Shown here: positions 359 to 59,157 of the stretch, piece by piece
Layout of the letters: the number at the start of each line of letters is the position of its first letter
How positions within the stretch are numbered: the stretch's first letter is position 1
Assembly (NCBI RefSeq): GCF_058153355.1
Contig: NZ_CM177019.1
DNA length: 64,000 nucleotides
Direction: 5' to 3' (one strand)
Notes under the pieces: model-generated
Databases searched by the model: none
What the model was told of the DNA's origin: nothing
What the model saw: the letters and a program-made list of their open reading frames with translations, nothing else
Translations under genes and position numbers: made by a program

Positions 359-1746
359 TGCAAATCGTCTCTGTCGATATTGGATCGACGTGGACCAAAG
401 CAGCCCTCTTCACCCGGGAGGGGGACGCGTTAACGTTGGTTAACCACGTTCTGACCCCAACCACCACCCATCATCTGGCGAAAGGGTTTTTCTCCAGCCT
501 GGACCAGGTGTTAAACGTAGATGATGCCCTCCCCCTGTTAAACAGTGGTGAGGTTGCATTGAAGTATTCCTCCTCTGCCGAAGGTGGGCTGGCGGTTGCC
601 GCAATGGGATTGGTGCCTTCTATCACCCTGGAAACCGCGAAAGTAACCGCTCACTCTGCGGGTGCTAAAATTGCGCAATATTACGCCTACAAGCTGAACC
701 GCCGTGATATCCAGGCACTGGAAGAAACGCAGCCCGATATTCTCTTGTTCACCGGCGGCACCGACGGCGGAGAAGAAAGCTACGGACTGAATAACGCCCG
801 TGTGCTGGCAGAATCCAAACTCGACTGCGCCATTATTTATGCCGGAAACCGGGATATTCAGGATAAGGTGCAGGAGATCCTCGGGCATAAAGACCTGACC
901 ATCGTCGACAACGTTCTGCCCGATCTTGACCATCCGAACCCTTTAGCTGCACGCCAGGCTATCTGCGACATATTCCTTAAACGCATCGTTAAAGGGAAAG
1001 GGCTGGATGTCATTGTTGATAAAACAGGCGAAGAACCAATGCCGACACCATGGACGGTCTTTGAACTGGTTAAGGCAATCAGTAACGTCGATCACAGCTG
1101 GAAAGAGTTCATGCTGATCGACATGGGCGGCGCAACCACCGATGTCTATTCCGCCTGTGCCAACACGCTCTCGCCCGACACTGTTTTACATGGCGTACCG
1201 GAACCCTTCGTAAAACGGACGGTGGAAGGCGATCTGGGAATGCGCGTCTCGGCAATGGTTGTTGGTGAAAGTGCGAAAGAGTTAGTCAGTGTGAATTTTG
1301 CTCAGCAACCCGCACAGTTGGACGCTTTTTATCATTACCTCCGTCATCTAGTCGCTCATCCCGACTACTTACCCGCGAATGCAGATGAAAAATATTTCGA
1401 TACCGTCCTGGCCGGACTGTGTGTGGGTTATGCCACCGAAAGACATGCGGGCACCAAAAAAGAGGTCTGCACCTGCGTCGGCAATGTCGATTTACAGATG
1501 GGACGTGATCTGACAACCGTGCGTAAAGTCGTGGGTTCCGGCGGATGGCTCTCACGTGCCAGTCAGTTCGATATGCATCACTGGTTGAAATACCGCGAGT
1601 TAAACGACGACGGTAAACGCATTCTCTTACCGACCGAATTTGAATATTACCGCGATTACCGGGGGCTATTACCACTGCTGGCAAACGTCGCCAGAGTCGA
1701 TCCGCTGGCCGCCGCGCGCACCAGTATTCAATGCTTAACCCTATAA
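358..1746 (+). CDS. glmL: Glutamate mutase-associated protein L (MutL/GlmL-like, putative reactivase/chaperone)
   Basis: 462-aa ORF lying between the mutase S and E subunit genes, as in clostridial glm/mut operons. Start overlaps the upstream stop (ATGA). Confidence 0.7.
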   Translation: MQIVSVDIGSTWTKAALFTREGDALTLVNHVLTPTTTHHLAKGFFSSLDQVLNVDDALPLLNSGEVALKYSSSAEGGLAVAAMGLVPSITLETAKVTAHSAGAKIAQYYAYKLNRRDIQALEETQPDILLFTGGTDGGEESYGLNNARVLAESKLDCAIIYAGNRDIQDKVQEILGHKDLTIVDNVLPDLDHPNPLAARQAICDIFLKRIVKGKGLDVIVDKTGEEPMPTPWTVFELVKAISNVDHSWKEFMLIDMGGATTDVYSACANTLSPDTVLHGVPEPFVKRTVEGDLGMRVSAMVVGESAKELVSVNFAQQPAQLDAFYHYLRHLVAHPDYLPANADEKYFDTVLAGLCVGYATERHAGTKKEVCTCVGNVDLQMGRDLTTVRKVVGSGGWLSRASQFDMHHWLKYRELNDDGKRILLPTEFEYYRDYRGLLPLLANVARVDPLAAARTSIQCLTL

Positions 1747-10891: not shown

Positions 10892-11480
10892 AATGCCGTC
10901 CGTGAAAAAATAACAATTCAAAAATTATTTTATAAAAAACAGTAGCACTAATGAATATCATAATTCAAATAAACAAACCAGTCAGCTATATGTCTAACCA
11001 GGAAAATAAAGTGACAATAATCCTAAAACAGGAATTTCACCTCAGTTATCCGCATGCAATACTTTAAAGCTATTATTGCAAGAATATTATTCATATACAT
11101 GAATATACTCTAAATAAGTCAAGTTGCAGGAAGGGAACAAATAATGAATTTCCAGAAGCTTACATAAGTAAGTGACCTGGGTGAGCGAACATCGATGCAG
11201 CACATGCAACTTGAATTATGACAAGTATACAATGATAAATTTATATACCCTATGTTATATATTATCTATGTCCGGTTAGATTGAATGAGTCATAGCCTTA
11301 AAAGACTTCACAAAAGATAATTCCTCTTTAACAATAAGCCAGATTTACCACTTGTAAAACTTGCTATCGCCACATACACTACGCGCGTTTTCTTTCCCTT
11401 TTGCTGGCTGCTGACCGGAAAGACAAAATTACCCTCGCAATACAGGGGGTTGATTAACGTCTATATTTCAGGACAGCGTT
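10892..11480. promoter_or_regulatory. AT-rich divergent intergenic region between the LysR gene and the RtcB-like gene
   Basis: About 590 bp of strongly AT-rich non-coding DNA between divergently oriented genes. Confidence 0.5.
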
Positions 11481-54026: not shown

Positions 54027-54700
54027 CAAACGTTCTGATTGTTGAAGATGAACAGGCTATTCGTCGCTTTCTGCGCACAGCGCTGGAGGGCGATGGGATG
54101 CGCGTCTTTGAGGCCGAAACGCTGCAACGCGGCTTGCTGGAAGCGGCAACCCGTAAGCCAGATTTGATTATTCTCGATCTCGGCCTGCCAGACGGTGATG
54201 GGATTGAGTTTATCCGCGACCTGCGCCAGTGGAGCGCGGTGCCAGTAATTGTGCTTTCCGCCCGCAGCGAAGAGAGCGACAAAATCGCCGCGCTGGATGC
54301 CGGAGCGGATGATTACCTGAGTAAGCCATTTGGTATTGGCGAATTACAGGCCCGTCTGCGCGTTGCTTTACGCCGCCACTCTGCTACCACCGCGCCCGAT
54401 CCGCTGGTGAAATTTTCTGATGTTACCGTCGATTTAGCCGCCCGCGTAATCCACCGCGGCGAGGAAGAGGTGCACCTCACACCGCTTGAGTTCCGCCTGC
54501 TGGCGGTGCTGCTCAACAACGCCGGAAAAGTGCTCACCCAGCGCCAGCTCCTCAACCAGGTGTGGGGGCCAAATGCGGTCGAACACAGCCACTATTTGCG
54601 TATATATATGGGGCATCTGCGACAAAAACTGGAGCAAGATCCCGCCCGCCCTCGCCATTTTATTACTGAAACCGGTATTGGGTATCGGTTTATGCTTTGA
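54023..54700 (+). CDS. kdpE: Response regulator KdpE (OmpR family)
   Basis: 225-aa ORF starting [17 protein letters not shown], with receiver and winged-helix domains. Confidence 0.97.
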   Translation: MTNVLIVEDEQAIRRFLRTALEGDGMRVFEAETLQRGLLEAATRKPDLIILDLGLPDGDGIEFIRDLRQWSAVPVIVLSARSEESDKIAALDAGADDYLSKPFGIGELQARLRVALRRHSATTAPDPLVKFSDVTVDLAARVIHRGEEEVHLTPLEFRLLAVLLNNAGKVLTQRQLLNQVWGPNAVEHSHYLRIYMGHLRQKLEQDPARPRHFITETGIGYRFML

Positions 54701-54736
54701 ATGTTAATTTTAATATATCCTGTCTTTTATTAATTA

Positions 54737-54766
54737 AAGCCGTAATAATAAATACGGCTTTTTATC
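54737..54766 (+). terminator. kdpE intrinsic terminator
   Basis: Hairpin aagccgta-ataataaa-tacggctt followed by a T-run. Confidence 0.7.
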
Positions 54767-54933
54767 TTAAACAACACACAAAAATAACAATTCAATATTT
54801 TATATTACTGAGTGAAAAACTCATCATTAAATAAATTAAGGTTGATCATTTTTTATTGATCACCTTCACAGTTCAACCGTATTTTCTGGATAGAATACCT
54901 TCACCTTCATTCACATCAGGAAAGGTAAATCAA

Positions 54934-55038
54934 ATGGAAAACAACAGCCGCACTATGCCCCATATAAGGCGGACAACCCATATTATGAAGTTTGCTCATC
55001 GTAATAGCTTCGACTTTCACTTCTTCAATGCCCGTTAG
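54934..55038 (+). CDS. speFL: speF leader / ornithine-sensing ribosome arrest peptide SpeFL
   Basis: 34-codon ORF MENNSRTMPHIRRTTHIMKFAHRNSFDFHFFNAR about 250 bp upstream of speF, preceded by an AGGAAAGG ribosome-binding site. Confidence 0.85.
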   Translation: MENNSRTMPHIRRTTHIMKFAHRNSFDFHFFNAR

Positions 55039-55295
55039 TCTGTCGACTAAGGGCACTTCAGCGTACAGGTCTTCCTGACTCTCTGTATTACAGGCATACG
55101 CCTGTATTCCGCAGTGCTCATTCTCTGTTAACCCTTATATTATCAGCCACCGGACTGGTAAGGGTTTCTGCATTCTGAAAAAAGCAATCTACTGATTTAT
55201 TTATCAGCGGGGTAACTTTGCTTTTTTTCCGGCACGATCGATTTCTCATTCGAGAAATTGAGGACCTGCTATTACCTAAACTAAAGAGATGAAAA

Positions 55296-57494
55296 ATGTC
55301 AAAATTAAAAATTGCGGTTAGTGATTCTTGCCCGGACTGTTTTACCACGCAGCGAGAATGTATCTATATTAATGAAAACAGTAATATCGATGTGGCGGCA
55401 ATAGTTTTATCGATCAACGATGTTGCACGAGGAAAACTCGATGAAATCGATGCCACGGGTTATGGCATCCCGGTATTTATTGCTACTGAAGATAAAGAAC
55501 GTGTACCCGCAGAGTATTTGCCCCGTATTTCGGGTGTATTTGAGAATTGCGAATCACGACGAGAATTTTATGGTCGTCAGTTAGAAACCGCAGCCAGCCA
55601 TTATGAAACTCAACTGCGCCCGCCCTTCTTCCGCGCACTGGTCGATTATGTCAATCAGGGCAATAGCGCTTTTGACTGCCCGGGTCATCAGGGGGGTGAG
55701 TTTTTCCGTCGCCATCCGGCAGGCAATCAGTTCGTGGAATATTTTGGCGAAATGCTCTTCCGCTCCGACTTGTGTAATGCCGACGTAGCAATGGGCGATC
55801 TACTGATTCATGAAGGTGCGCCATGCATTGCACAGCAACATGCGGCTAAAGTGTTTAATGCCGATAAAACGTACTTTGTTTTAAACGGCACCTCCTCTTC
55901 CAACAAAGTGGTTTTAAACGCCCTGCTAACACCGGGTGATCTGGTGCTGTTTGACCGCAATAACCATAAGTCTAACCACCACGGGGCCTTGCTACAGGCT
56001 GGTGCAACACCGGTTTATCTGGAAACAGCACGTAACCCGTATGGTTTTATCGGTGGTATTGATGCGCACTGCTTCGAAGAAAGTTATCTGCGTGAACTGA
56101 TTAGAGAAGTTGCACCGCAACGGGCAAAAGAGGCGCGTCCGTTCCGCCTCGCTGTGATTCAGTTAGGCACCTACGACGGTACTATTTATAACGCCCGCCA
56201 GGTGGTGGATAAAATCGGTCATCTGTGTGACTACATCCTGTTTGACTCAGCATGGGTCGGCTATGAACAGTTTATTCCGATGATGGCGGACTGTTCGCCG
56301 CTGCTACTGGAGCTTAATGAGAACGATCCGGGTATTCTGGTTACGCAATCTGTACATAAGCAGCAGGCTGGTTTTTCTCAGACTTCACAAATTCATAAAA
56401 AAGACAGCCATATCAAAGGGCAACAGCGTTATGTACCGCACAAACGCATGAACAACGCCTTTATGATGCACGCCTCCACCAGCCCGTTCTATCCGCTGTT
56501 TGCCGCACTGGATATTAACGCCAAAATGCATGAAGGTGTCAGCGGTCGTAATATGTGGATGGATTGTGTGGTTAACGGTATTAATGCCCGCAAATTGATC
56601 CTCGATAACTGCCAGCACATTCGTCCGTTCGTTCCTGAACTGGTGGATGGTAAACCCTGGCAATCGTATGAAACAGCGCAAATTGCGGTTGATCTGCGCT
56701 TCTTTAAATTTGTACCCGGTGAGCACTGGCATTCTTTTGAAGGTTACGCAGAGAATCAATACTTTGTCGATCCGTGCAAACTGTTGCTGACAACCCCAGG
56801 TATTGATGCACGTAACGGCGAATACGAAGCGTTCGGTGTACCCGCGACGATTCTTGCTAACTTCCTGCGCGAAAATGGCGTAGTGCCGGAAAAATGCGAT
56901 CTTAACTCCATCCTCTTCCTGCTGACTCCGGCAGAAGATATGGCCAAACTGCAGCAACTTGTTGCCCTGCTGGTACGCTTCGAAAAACTACTGGAAGCTG
57001 ATGCGCCTCTGGCGGAAGTATTGCCTTCCATCTACAAACAGCATGAAGAGCGCTACGCCGGTTATACCCTGCGTCAGTTGTGCCAGGAAATGCATGATTT
57101 GTATGCCCGTCACAACGTGAAACAACTGCAAAAAGAGATGTTCCGTAAGGAACACTTCCCACGCGTCAGCATGAATCCACAGGAAGCCAACTATGCCTAC
57201 TTACGCGGTGAAGTGGAATTGGTTCGTCTGCCGGATGCAGAAGGCCGTATCGCAGCCGAAGGTGCGCTTCCTTATCCTCCGGGTGTGCTGTGTGTTGTTC
57301 CGGGTGAAATCTGGGGTGGTGCTGTTCTGCGTTACTTCAGCGCTCTGGAAGAAGGGATCAATCTGCTGCCAGGTTTTGCACCGGAGCTGCAGGGTGTCTA
57401 TATCGAAGAACATGATGGTCGTAAGCAAGTTTGGTGCTATGTCATCAAGCCTCGTGATGCGCAAAGCACCCTGTTGAAAGGGGAAAAATTATGA
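55296..57494 (+). CDS. speF: Inducible ornithine decarboxylase
   Basis: 732-aa ORF with PLP-dependent decarboxylase sequence (SVHKQQAG). Confidence 0.97.
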   Translation: MSKLKIAVSDSCPDCFTTQRECIYINENSNIDVAAIVLSINDVARGKLDEIDATGYGIPVFIATEDKERVPAEYLPRISGVFENCESRREFYGRQLETAASHYETQLRPPFFRALVDYVNQGNSAFDCPGHQGGEFFRRHPAGNQFVEYFGEMLFRSDLCNADVAMGDLLIHEGAPCIAQQHAAKVFNADKTYFVLNGTSSSNKVVLNALLTPGDLVLFDRNNHKSNHHGALLQAGATPVYLETARNPYGFIGGIDAHCFEESYLRELIREVAPQRAKEARPFRLAVIQLGTYDGTIYNARQVVDKIGHLCDYILFDSAWVGYEQFIPMMADCSPLLLELNENDPGILVTQSVHKQQAGFSQTSQIHKKDSHIKGQQRYVPHKRMNNAFMMHASTSPFYPLFAALDINAKMHEGVSGRNMWMDCVVNGINARKLILDNCQHIRPFVPELVDGKPWQSYETAQIAVDLRFFKFVPGEHWHSFEGYAENQYFVDPCKLLLTTPGIDARNGEYEAFGVPATILANFLRENGVVPEKCDLNSILFLLTPAEDMAKLQQLVALLVRFEKLLEADAPLAEVLPSIYKQHEERYAGYTLRQLCQEMHDLYARHNVKQLQKEMFRKEHFPRVSMNPQEANYAYLRGEVELVRLPDAEGRIAAEGALPYPPGVLCVVPGEIWGGAVLRYFSALEEGINLLPGFAPELQGVYIEEHDGRKQVWCYVIKPRDAQSTLLKGEKL

Positions 57495-58810
57495 GTCAGG
57501 CTAAATCGAACAAAATGGGCGTCGTTCAGTTAACCATACTGACGATGGTCAACATGATGGGCTCCGGCATCATCATGCTGCCGACAAAGCTTGCCGAAGT
57601 TGGGACAATCTCAATAATCTCCTGGTTGGTGACAGCCGTAGGCTCAATGGCGCTGGCATGGGCATTCGCAAAATGCGGTATGTTCAGCCGTAAATCAGGC
57701 GGTATGGGCGGTTATGCCGAGTATGCTTTCGGTAAATCCGGTAACTTTATGGCGAACTATACCTACGGCGTCTCGCTGCTGATTGCTAACGTGGCGATTG
57801 CTATTTCGGCAGTTGGTTACGGCACCGAACTGCTCGGCGCGAGTTTGTCACCAGTGCAGATTGGTCTGGCAACCATCGGAGTGCTGTGGATTTGTACCGT
57901 GGCTAACTTTGGTGGTGCGCGCATTACCGGGCAAATCAGTAGCATTACCGTGTGGGGGGGCATTATTCCGGTGGTAGGCTTGTGCGTTATCGGCTGGTTC
58001 TGGTTTAGCCCGACACTTTACGTTGATTCCTGGAATCCGCATCATGCACCGTTCTTCAGTGCGGTAGGTTCTTCCATCGCCATGACGCTGTGGGCTTTTC
58101 TTGGTCTGGAGTCTGCGTGTGCGAATACTGATGTAGTGGAAAACCCGGAACGTAATGTGCCAATCGCGGTACTCGGCGGTACGTTAGGTGCGGCGGTGAT
58201 TTATATCGTCTCCACCAACGTGATTGCCGGGATTGTGCCCAATATGGAGCTGGCAAATTCAACGGCACCATTTGGTCTGGCCTTCGCGCAAATGTTCACA
58301 CCGGAAGTGGGTAAAGTCATTATGGCGCTGATGGTGATGTCCTGCTGCGGTTCGCTACTTGGCTGGCAGTTCACCATTGCCCAGGTGTTTAAATCTTCAT
58401 CTGATGAAGGCTACTTCCCTAAAATTTTCTCCCGTGTAACCAAAGTGGATGCACCGGTTCAGGGGATGTTGACCATTGTGATTATTCAGAGTGGATTGGC
58501 ACTGATGACCATTAGCCCGTCACTGAACAGCCAGTTCAACGTGCTGGTTAACCTGGCCGTGGTGACCAATATCATCCCATATATTCTGTCGATGGCGGCA
58601 TTAGTCATTATTCAGAAGGTCGCCAATGTGCCACCATCAAAAGCGAAAGTAGCAAACTTTGTTGCCTTTGTTGGTGCGATGTACAGTTTCTATGCGCTGT
58701 ACTCATCCGGGGAAGAAGCCATGCTGTACGGTTCCATCGTGACTTTCCTTGGTTGGACACTGTATGGTCTGGTATCACCACGCTTTGAACTGAAAAACAA
58801 ACACGGTTAA
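57491..58810 (+). CDS. potE: Putrescine:ornithine antiporter
   Basis: 439-aa APC-family transporter; start overlaps the speF stop. Confidence 0.97.
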   Translation: MSQAKSNKMGVVQLTILTMVNMMGSGIIMLPTKLAEVGTISIISWLVTAVGSMALAWAFAKCGMFSRKSGGMGGYAEYAFGKSGNFMANYTYGVSLLIANVAIAISAVGYGTELLGASLSPVQIGLATIGVLWICTVANFGGARITGQISSITVWGGIIPVVGLCVIGWFWFSPTLYVDSWNPHHAPFFSAVGSSIAMTLWAFLGLESACANTDVVENPERNVPIAVLGGTLGAAVIYIVSTNVIAGIVPNMELANSTAPFGLAFAQMFTPEVGKVIMALMVMSCCGSLLGWQFTIAQVFKSSSDEGYFPKIFSRVTKVDAPVQGMLTIVIIQSGLALMTISPSLNSQFNVLVNLAVVTNIIPYILSMAALVIIQKVANVPPSKAKVANFVAFVGAMYSFYALYSSGEEAMLYGSIVTFLGWTLYGLVSPRFELKNKHG

Positions 58811-58880: not shown

Positions 58881-59024
58881 GCCGCATCCGGCAGGTGTAG
58901 GGTCCAAACGCGGTCGAACACAGCAACTATTTGCGTAATTATATGAGGCATTTGCGACAAAAACTGGAACAGGATCTCGTCCGCCCCGCCATTTCATTAC
59001 TGAAACCGGTATTGGGTATCGGTT
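58881..59024. repeat. Degenerate non-coding duplicate of the kdpE 3' end (direct repeat of 54557..54700)
   Basis: Manual alignment gives roughly 90% identity over ~144 nt (about 14 substitutions and one 1-nt indel), including the kdpE stop codon context ...ggtattgggtatcggtttatgctttga. Confidence 0.85.
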
Positions 59025-59157
59025 TATGCTTTGAAAAAAGTGGCAATGTATGGATAAAGTCATTTTTTATTCAAATATAAGGAACTTAATATTTAAAAAA
59101 TGTCCCATACAATGCCTCATCATAAATGACACCGTAGCACACAAGGAGCAAGTAGCG

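Follow-up and report, generated by a model that had tools for sequence, protein, structure and literature searches.

Results

The speFL-speF-potE operon leader

The stretch of DNA analysed here, referred to as the window, comprises 64,000 nucleotides of contig NZ_CM177019.1 (NCBI RefSeq assembly GCF_058153355.1). It carries the speFL-speF-potE operon leader of an Escherichia coli-group chromosome, a locus that is already known and annotated and is ordinary in this group. All features described below lie on the plus strand unless stated otherwise. The first gene, speFL, is a short upstream open reading frame (ORF) of 34 codons (54934..55038), which runs from an ATG at 54934 to a TAG at 55036..55038 and encodes MENNSRTMPHIRRTTHIMKFAHRNSFDFHFFNAR; it is intact, as the original prediction had claimed. 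This ORF lies directly upstream of speF (55296..57494) on the same strand. The spacer between the two, predicted at about 250 bp, measures 257 nt (55039..55295). Inducible ornithine decarboxylase is encoded by speF (732 amino acids) and the putrescine-ornithine antiporter by potE (57491..58810, 439 amino acids), both of them intact in the ORF list and named after the E. coli annotation. The gene order kdpE-speFL-speF-potE agrees with the RefSeq annotation of E. coli, whose complete genomes list the ORF at the homologous place, between kdpE and speF, as 'leader peptide SpeFL'.

The ORF listing shows speFL only as the 3' part of a 60-amino-acid ORF started by TTG (54856..55038). A mechanical ORF list would therefore give speFL the wrong start, or miss it at higher length cut-offs, which bears out the prediction that length filters would overlook this small gene. 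We rejected the TTG extension as a gene, as it is unannotated in E. coli and 1-nt indels occur across the stretch in close relatives. A 76-amino-acid ORF on the minus strand (55118..55348) was rejected on the same two grounds. The profile of Pfam family PF10940 (SpeFL, formerly DUF2618) matches the peptide with E = 4e-5 and 23.8 bits against a gathering score of 25. The shortfall reflects the cut-off as applied to a protein of just 34 residues, and the founding member in the PDB is identical. A search of NCBIfam with the SpeFL peptide returned no model.

The SpeFL peptide retains the ornithine-sensing residues

Aligned with the published sequence, as the original prediction had suggested, the peptide is 34/34 identical (E = 7.6e-20) to the SpeFL chain of PDB entries 6TBV and 6TC3, the structures of ornithine-stalled ribosomes with E. 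coli K-12 SpeFL (Herrero del Valle et al., bioRxiv 10.1101/604074). Stalling requires residues 1-7, H10, I11, R12, R13, H16, F26, F28, F30 and F31, and the ornithine pocket is lined by P9, R12 and R13 (10.1101/604074). In the window, residues 1-7 are the same as in the solved chain, and P9-H10-I11-R12-R13-T14-T15-H16 is present. The predicted HIRRXXH region corresponds to residues 10-16, the HIRRTTH ornithine-recognition motif (54961..54981; roles from 10.1101/604074 and PMC6386406), and the predicted C-terminal FDFHFFNAR to residues 26-34. The latter belongs to the effector domain (codons 20-34, 54991..55035), in which all five core phenylalanines (F20, F26, F28, F30 and F31) are present and N32-A33-R34 directly abuts the UAG. 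None of the published required residues differs, and the ornithine-sensing residues are thus intact. The UAG stop, the rare arginine codons 12-13 (AGG, 54967..54969, and CGG, 54970..54972) and the 257-nt intergenic length are all as described in 10.1101/604074. Peptide identity, operon context, required residues, rare codons, UAG and spacer length together agree with the earlier assignment of the locus to the described ornithine-sensing and Rho-dependent system.

Conservation of the ORF follows a coding pattern. Compared with E. coli strain 104, the speFL ORF has three nucleotide differences, all synonymous. In an alignment of 37 enterobacterial leaders (A2), variable columns at codon positions 1, 2 and 3 number 9, 7 and 27, each out of 34. 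Homologues were surveyed by a degenerate DNA pattern scan with one genome per species, which gave 95 matching stretches. About 67 of these are true speFL ORFs in Enterobacterales, from genera that include Escherichia, Salmonella, Citrobacter, Kluyvera, Enterobacter, Pluralibacter, Kosakonia, Serratia and others; about 25 are chance matches in unrelated phyla. At most of the approximately 67 speFL loci a speF homologue lies 197-381 nt downstream. A downstream speF was not detected at a dozen, at some of which the fetched contig ends before it.

The scan pattern and a MENN filter force residues 1-4, 10, 12, 13, 16, 26, 28, 30 and 31, so the conservation of these residues is circular. Residues M8, T14, T15, M18, R23 and N32 were not forced by the search, yet are invariant or nearly so in A2. 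Codon 12 is AGG in nearly all 37 leaders. At residue 19, lysine is specific to Escherichia, whereas other genera carry methionine; the peptides from two Salmonella subspecies (L035 and L042) have M19 in place of K19 and also differ at residues 5 and 7.

Structured elements of the leader RNA

A putative -10 hexamer of the speFL-speF-potE promoter, TAGAAT, lies at 54891..54896. In Salmonella, transcription starts 31 nt upstream of the AUG of orf34, the speFL homologue (PMC6386406), and alignment to this start places the probable start here at A54903, 6 nt past TAGAAT. A sigma-70 consensus scan called no promoter at the TAGAAT site. From A54903 onwards, the minimum free energy (MFE) fold of the full leader contains a 5' stem-loop (54903..54926), whose 3' arm holds the speFL Shine-Dalgarno sequence AGGAAAGG (54918..54925). 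This stem-loop is helix 1 of A2, where 74% of cells are paired and 4/8 pairs are changed on both sides.

The end of the ORF lies within the counterpart of the published RNA-polymerase pause hairpin (55029..55055), which covers codons 33-34 and the UAG and has a folding energy of -15.2 kcal/mol (z = -4.70). In A2 this stop-codon hairpin (helices 2-3) is 84-92% paired, with compensatory changes present. Since the hairpin overlaps the end of the leader ORF, is stable and is conserved with compensatory changes, it is an element shared with the published system. A pattern match at 55052..55063 to the consensus pause element (G-11 G-10 ... Y-1 G+1), an element named in Supplementary Fig. 4 of 10.1101/604074, suggests a pause with its predicted 3' end at C55062. 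The 157-nt terminated transcript of Salmonella (+157; PMC6386406) maps to about 55059 here.

Immediately downstream is the counterpart of the Salmonella 'DS' hairpin, TACAG-GUC...GAC...CUGUA (55064..55087), which is weak (-7.0 kcal/mol, z = -1.58). It is paired in about 75% of cells (A2 helices 4-5) and competes with a long-range helix formed by 55060-55072 and 55262-55277. A deletion of the DS region, C154-U189, has been described in Salmonella (PMC6386406). Beyond the palindrome considered below, a two-tier hairpin (55130..55166, -12.7 kcal/mol) combines an outer stem AACCCU/AGGGUU with an inner stem that closes a nearly invariant loop, ACCGGAC. Both-side changes affect 4/4 of its pairs in A2 helix 8 and 3/6 in helix 7. 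It is followed by a long A/U-rich hairpin (55177..55229, -14.7 kcal/mol, z = -3.16) with an inner stem CUGA/UCAG and a 3' U-run. This hairpin is 90-100% paired (A2 helices 9-10), its inner four pairs are without variation in 37 sequences, and a weak terminator-like call falls inside it at 55206..55222. The last local hairpin, UCGAUUUCUC-AUUC-GAGAAAUUGA (55238..55261, -11.1 kcal/mol, z = -3.24), stands just upstream of the speF ribosome-binding site; here A2 helix 12 is 97.6% paired, with 6/10 pairs changed on both sides.

The full-leader fold also predicts two long-range helices. In the first, helix A, speFL codons 27-31 (55012..55025) pair with 55284..55300, which spans the speF Shine-Dalgarno sequence AAGAGA (55284..55289) and the AUG at 55296. 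In the second, helix B, 55060..55072 pairs with 55262..55277. Helix A is helix 7 of the long-range model on A2 and is 92% paired with no compensatory change, so that its support here is of conservation only. Its counterpart was validated in Salmonella by compensatory mutation (PMC6386406).

The fold of the whole 418-nt leader has an energy of -112.9 kcal/mol (z = -3.84 against shuffles). Across the 37 leaders of A2, the local-hairpin model is 87.8% paired, compared with 36-51% when the partners are slid, and contains 32 pairs changed on both sides compared with 13-19 in these slid controls. No shuffle equals it on four of five measures. The long-range model is 82.8% paired on the same alignment. 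An Rfam search of 54600..55500 gave sub-threshold noise only, and no curated RNA family covers the leader. In base composition, the first ~250 nt of the leader are richer in C than in G, with C/G ratios of 1.1-1.9 across 54903..55157. This bias is compatible with a rut region but is no proof of one.

A conserved palindrome hairpin separate from the pause hairpin

The original prediction placed a palindrome upstream of speF at about 55086..55103. The palindrome exists, 3 nt away from that position: TACAGGCATACGCCTGTA occupies 55089..55106, with 7-nt arms and a 4-nt loop in the RNA (TACAGGC-AUAC-GCCUGUA). It occurs once in the window and had no match in 100 shuffles. As RNA it folds with -10.6 kcal/mol (z = -5.45), and none of 200 shuffles is as stable. 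The palindrome is helix 6 of A2 and is 90% paired, with a CAGG/CCUG core that is nearly invariant in the 37 leaders. Its apical base pair varies: the window has C-G, E. albertii (L002) has U.G, and U-A is found in leader L030, in the type-B leaders of E. coli and in the O157:H7-type E. coli leader, which reads TACAGGT-TAAT-ACCTGTA at this site.

A stable hairpin within the leader could itself play the part of Rho-dependent terminator or pause hairpin in the published model, and a second match to the pause consensus does end at 55103, inside the palindrome. Both 10.1101/604074 and PMC6386406, however, describe a pause hairpin that spans the stop codon of speFL, which corresponds to 55029..55055 here, and the Salmonella +157 end at about 55059 falls 30 nt upstream of the palindrome. 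We consider this assignment very improbable. With the pause hairpin at the end of speFL and termination, as mapped in Salmonella, occurring before the palindrome is reached, the palindrome is a conserved RNA hairpin separate from the published Rho and pause hairpin.

The same symmetry would also suit a DNA operator bound by a dimeric transcription factor. The site reads as a perfect 18-bp palindrome, TACAGGCATATGCCTGTA, in E. coli strain 104 and an E. coli-like contig (L064), and its CAGG/CCTG cores are almost invariant, as is often the case in protein-binding sites. Against an operator, the palindrome is part of the transcribed leader, about 190 nt past the inferred start, and its apical pair shifts from C-G to U.G to U-A with pairing retained. 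Moreover, the arms are kept in seven genomes despite 121-135 nt inserted between them. Such an insert would destroy an operator, whereas an RNA stem would survive it, so the conservation of the arms around the long insert favours an RNA stem and leaves a DNA operator with very little probability.

Repeat insertions in the palindrome loop

In each of these seven genomes the insert is placed exactly between the palindrome arms. The RNA hairpin would thus carry the additional sequence in its loop. In two Citrobacter (L069 and L063), two Kluyvera (L006 and L076) and one Pluralibacter (L072) leader, the insert of about 125 nt is ERIC-like. ERIC elements are imperfect palindromes of ~127 bp that share a conserved core, GTGAATCCCCAGGAGCTTACAT-AAGTAAGTGACTGGGGTGAGCG. 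The inserts of L069, L006 and L076 match the ERIC1R/ERIC2 primer core with 6-9 mismatches in 44, and those of L006 and L076 align with 72-74% identity (E = 1e-9 to 1e-14) to an ERIC copy at 11097..11231 of the window, where a core match lies at 11144..11187. Unlike these leaders, the speF leader of the window contains no ERIC element: neither a core match nor an nhmmer match was found in it, and the palindrome site has the empty form, a 7-bp stem with a 4-nt loop. Filled and empty alleles both occur in Citrobacter and in Kluyvera.

The two Salmonella leaders (L035 and L042) carry an insert of ~121 nt at the same place between the palindrome arms. These ~121 nt account for their longer spacer, which is 378-379 nt compared with 257 nt here. 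An nhmmer search for ERIC in the two Salmonella inserts found nothing, and local alignment to ERIC is marginal, with an 18-nt terminal match and a score that 0-28 of 500 shuffles reach in the best cases.

Coordinates suggest that the palindrome and the Salmonella insert together correspond to 'hairpin a' of the 'ring' described by Ben-Zvi et al., whose ring deletions cover nt 170-313 and 319-454 (PMC6386406). The homologous Salmonella hairpins form this ring, which controls RNase G-dependent decay in response to arginine (PMC6386406); ERIC is nowhere mentioned in that paper. Counterparts of ring hairpins b and c are present here and co-vary, whereas the counterpart of hairpin a would consist of just the 7-bp palindrome, as the ~121-nt insert is missing.

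Divergence of the leader from E. coli

Compared with 5,426 complete E. coli genomes, the leader of the window reaches a best identity of 97.4% and is about 2.6-3% different from all of them; from the closest complete genomes its DNA is ~3% diverged. Complete E. coli genomes match the neighbouring kdpDE stretch with at most 97.7% identity, and a segment within speF with up to 100%. The differences from the leader of E. coli strain 104 are synonymous, affect hairpin loops or preserve base pairing. In the loops, the stop-codon hairpin has UGUC here and UACC in strain 104, and the palindrome has AUAC here and AUAU there. Pair-preserving differences occur in the hairpin at 55130..55166, with A-U in place of G.U and U.G in place of U-A.

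A megablast match to the leader was found in 1,727 of the 5,426 complete E. coli genomes, and speF was found in 5,125. We rejected a reading of the first number as presence or absence of the operon, since speF is in 5,125 genomes and the remaining leaders are only 72-75% identical, which megablast missed.

As a separate observation, two leader haplotypes that have diverged deeply from each other exist in E. coli, a K-12-like type in ~1,700 genomes and another type in ~3,300. The leader of the ~3,300-genome type exceeds the K-12-like one by ~53 nt, and a hairpin other than the palindrome carries an ERIC-terminus-like insert in it.

Discussion

Model of speF regulation

Our analysis establishes the identity of the sequence, the anatomy of the leader, and the conservation and co-variation of its structures. 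The locus is almost certainly a speFL leader that would act by ornithine-dependent stalling, Rho antitermination and translational coupling to speF, to judge from its sequence. Stalling, Rho dependence, translational coupling and decay are taken from published work on the identical K-12 peptide and the Salmonella homologue and would apply here by analogy. For the identical peptide, ornithine-dependent, puromycin-resistant stalling at codons 33/34 was shown in 10.1101/604074.

Transcription would start near 54903, and ribosomes would translate the 34 codons of speFL. When free L-ornithine is high, it would be captured between the wall of the 23S rRNA tunnel and the loop that HIRRTTH (residues 10-16) forms in the nascent peptide. 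Compaction of the Phe-rich C-terminal domain would follow and block the action of RF1 at the UAG, holding the ribosome with codon 34 in the P site. Stalled and queued ribosomes would mask the C-rich rut region overlapping speFL, Rho would fail to load, and RNA polymerase would read into speF-potE. At low ornithine, the ribosome would terminate and leave, Rho would load, and transcription would probably end within a few nucleotides of passing the stop-codon hairpin (about 55059..55062). As a second layer, translation of speFL would open the helix between codons 27-31 and the speF Shine-Dalgarno sequence and AUG, permitting translation of speF. The remainder of the 257-nt leader is a set of conserved hairpins that includes the palindrome.

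This arrangement resembles the Salmonella orf34/speF leader (PMC6386406). Common to both are a homologous 34-codon upstream ORF, Rho-dependent attenuation after the stop hairpin (predicted here), the DS region, a long-range helix that engages the speF ribosome-binding site, and the hairpins further downstream. The stop codons differ: orf34 ends in UGA in the Salmonella strain of PMC6386406, whereas speFL ends in UAG here. The leader also parallels TnaC of tnaCAB, another ligand-dependent arrest peptide that blocks a release factor at its own stop, with the stalled ribosome hiding the rut site from Rho (10.1101/604074). TnaC, unlike SpeFL, responds to tryptophan rather than ornithine and uses another binding site in the tunnel, and the two peptides have no sequence relationship.

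In the Salmonella model of Ben-Zvi et al., arginine has a prominent part. A pause at low arginine lets the DS hairpin form and gives an RNase G-resistant mRNA, whereas uninterrupted translation at high arginine leads to the 'ring' fold, which RNase G degrades (PMC6386406). Arginine could likewise be the main signal here, with ribosomes pausing at the rare codons 12-13 when it is scarce; this would be an added layer more than a true alternative to ornithine sensing. The AGG-CGG codons are present (54967..54972), the window retains conserved counterparts of the DS hairpin, the long-range helices and hairpins b and c, and such a layer also has the Salmonella experiments reported in PMC6386406 behind it. 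Yet the later structural work found direct contacts of both R12 and R13 with ornithine, and a stall that is due to the peptide and not to the mRNA (10.1101/604074). The window, moreover, lacks the ~121-nt insert that would form most of the Salmonella hairpin a and much of the ring, and its DS hairpin is thermodynamically weak (z = -1.58). With the DS hairpin weak and the large insert absent, the arginine and RNase G layer may not work the same way here, and we regard arginine as a possible but rather doubtful main signal. Ornithine-dependent stalling at the speFL stop codon remains the preferred explanation, and no finding speaks against it.

Implications

The palindrome hairpin lends itself to a tentative proposal. 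It may be a functional, conserved stem of the speF leader that is also a recurrent docking site for ERIC-type repeats. Leader alleles may on this proposal differ in the ornithine, arginine or RNase G control of speF, and much of the Salmonella 'ring' may be an ancient repeat insertion. We consider this proposal possible but less likely than not.

The locus contains a functional 34-codon gene that is recognisable by careful reading, which length filters miss or start wrongly and which narrowly misses the Pfam cut-off. SpeFL is a textbook-grade ribosomal sensor of a small molecule, linking ornithine to putrescine synthesis and to acid-stress and virulence physiology, all of which is published. 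A modest new angle comes from the natural variation of the leader, which takes the form of repeat insertions inside conserved hairpins and of two E. coli haplotypes. These natural variants are ready-made 'mutants' for testing which RNA elements matter.

Results and discussion

By sequence identity, the speFL leader of E. coli exists as two deeply divergent haplotypes. In the E. coli genome collection, ~1,700 genomes carry a K-12-like type that is 95-99% identical to the window and has a 257-nt speFL-speF spacer, and ~3,305 carry a second type with an identity of just 72-75%, wholly undetected by megablast. We read this second type in one example, L097 (O157:H7 F8797, positions 434..848, against window 54903..55320), in which SpeFL begins MENNNRLMPH and the spacer spans 310 nt. 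The ~53 extra nucleotides of this example lie in the 5′ arm of the hairpin at window 55130..55166 and show a weak nhmmer match to the termini of the ERIC repeat (E = 3e-4). The window itself holds a full-length ERIC copy at 11097..11231, with a core (11144..11187) that differs at 6 of 44 positions from the ERIC1R/ERIC2 primer sequences.

Repeats also occupy the palindrome hairpin (window 55089..55106) of other leaders. Some species of Citrobacter (L069, L063), Kluyvera (L006, L076) and Pluralibacter (L072) carry an ERIC-like repeat of ~125-135 nt in its loop, flanked by arms homologous to window 55095/55100, and the site is empty in their sister species. At the identical insertion point, Salmonella (L035, L042) carries a 121-nt insert, for which kinship with ERIC was looked for and could not be shown. 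Repeats go unmentioned in the Salmonella paper on the speF leader (PMC6386406).

The E. coli-type speFL-speF leader also appears, at 97% identity to the window, on a 2.2-kb contig labelled as a Collinsella sp. MAG (Actinomycetota; L064); this is almost certainly an Escherichia contig that was mis-binned.

Around the operon, ~145 nt at the 3′ end of kdpE (window 54557..54701) recur directly 3′ of potE (58892..59035) with 87-96% identity; the speFL-speF-potE module therefore sits between two direct repeats with a spacing of 4,335 nt, which suggests that it was formerly inserted into the kdpE end. The copy 3′ of potE resembles ybfI, a kdpE-like pseudogene remnant that lies downstream of potE in K-12. 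Between kdpE and the speFL promoter, 35 nt past the kdpE stop, a hairpin resembling a terminator, AAAGCCGTA...TACGGCTTT with a T-rich tail after it (54736..54761), is probably the kdp operon terminator. Approximately 30-50 nt 5′ of the putative -10 element of the speFL promoter lies a direct repeat, TTGATCA-N7-TTGATCA (54842..54862), each copy containing the palindrome TGATCA. Also kept in E. coli strain 104, this repeat could bind a regulator that mediates acid or anaerobic induction.

Within the hairpin at 55177..55229, the CUGA/UCAG inner stem (55192..55207) shows zero variation across 37 enterobacterial leaders, in which the surrounding pairs co-vary, and the UUUUUUUCCGG that comes after it is near-invariant too. 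This pattern of conservation points to sequence-specific recognition or a terminator/antiterminator role, for which neither published model accounts.
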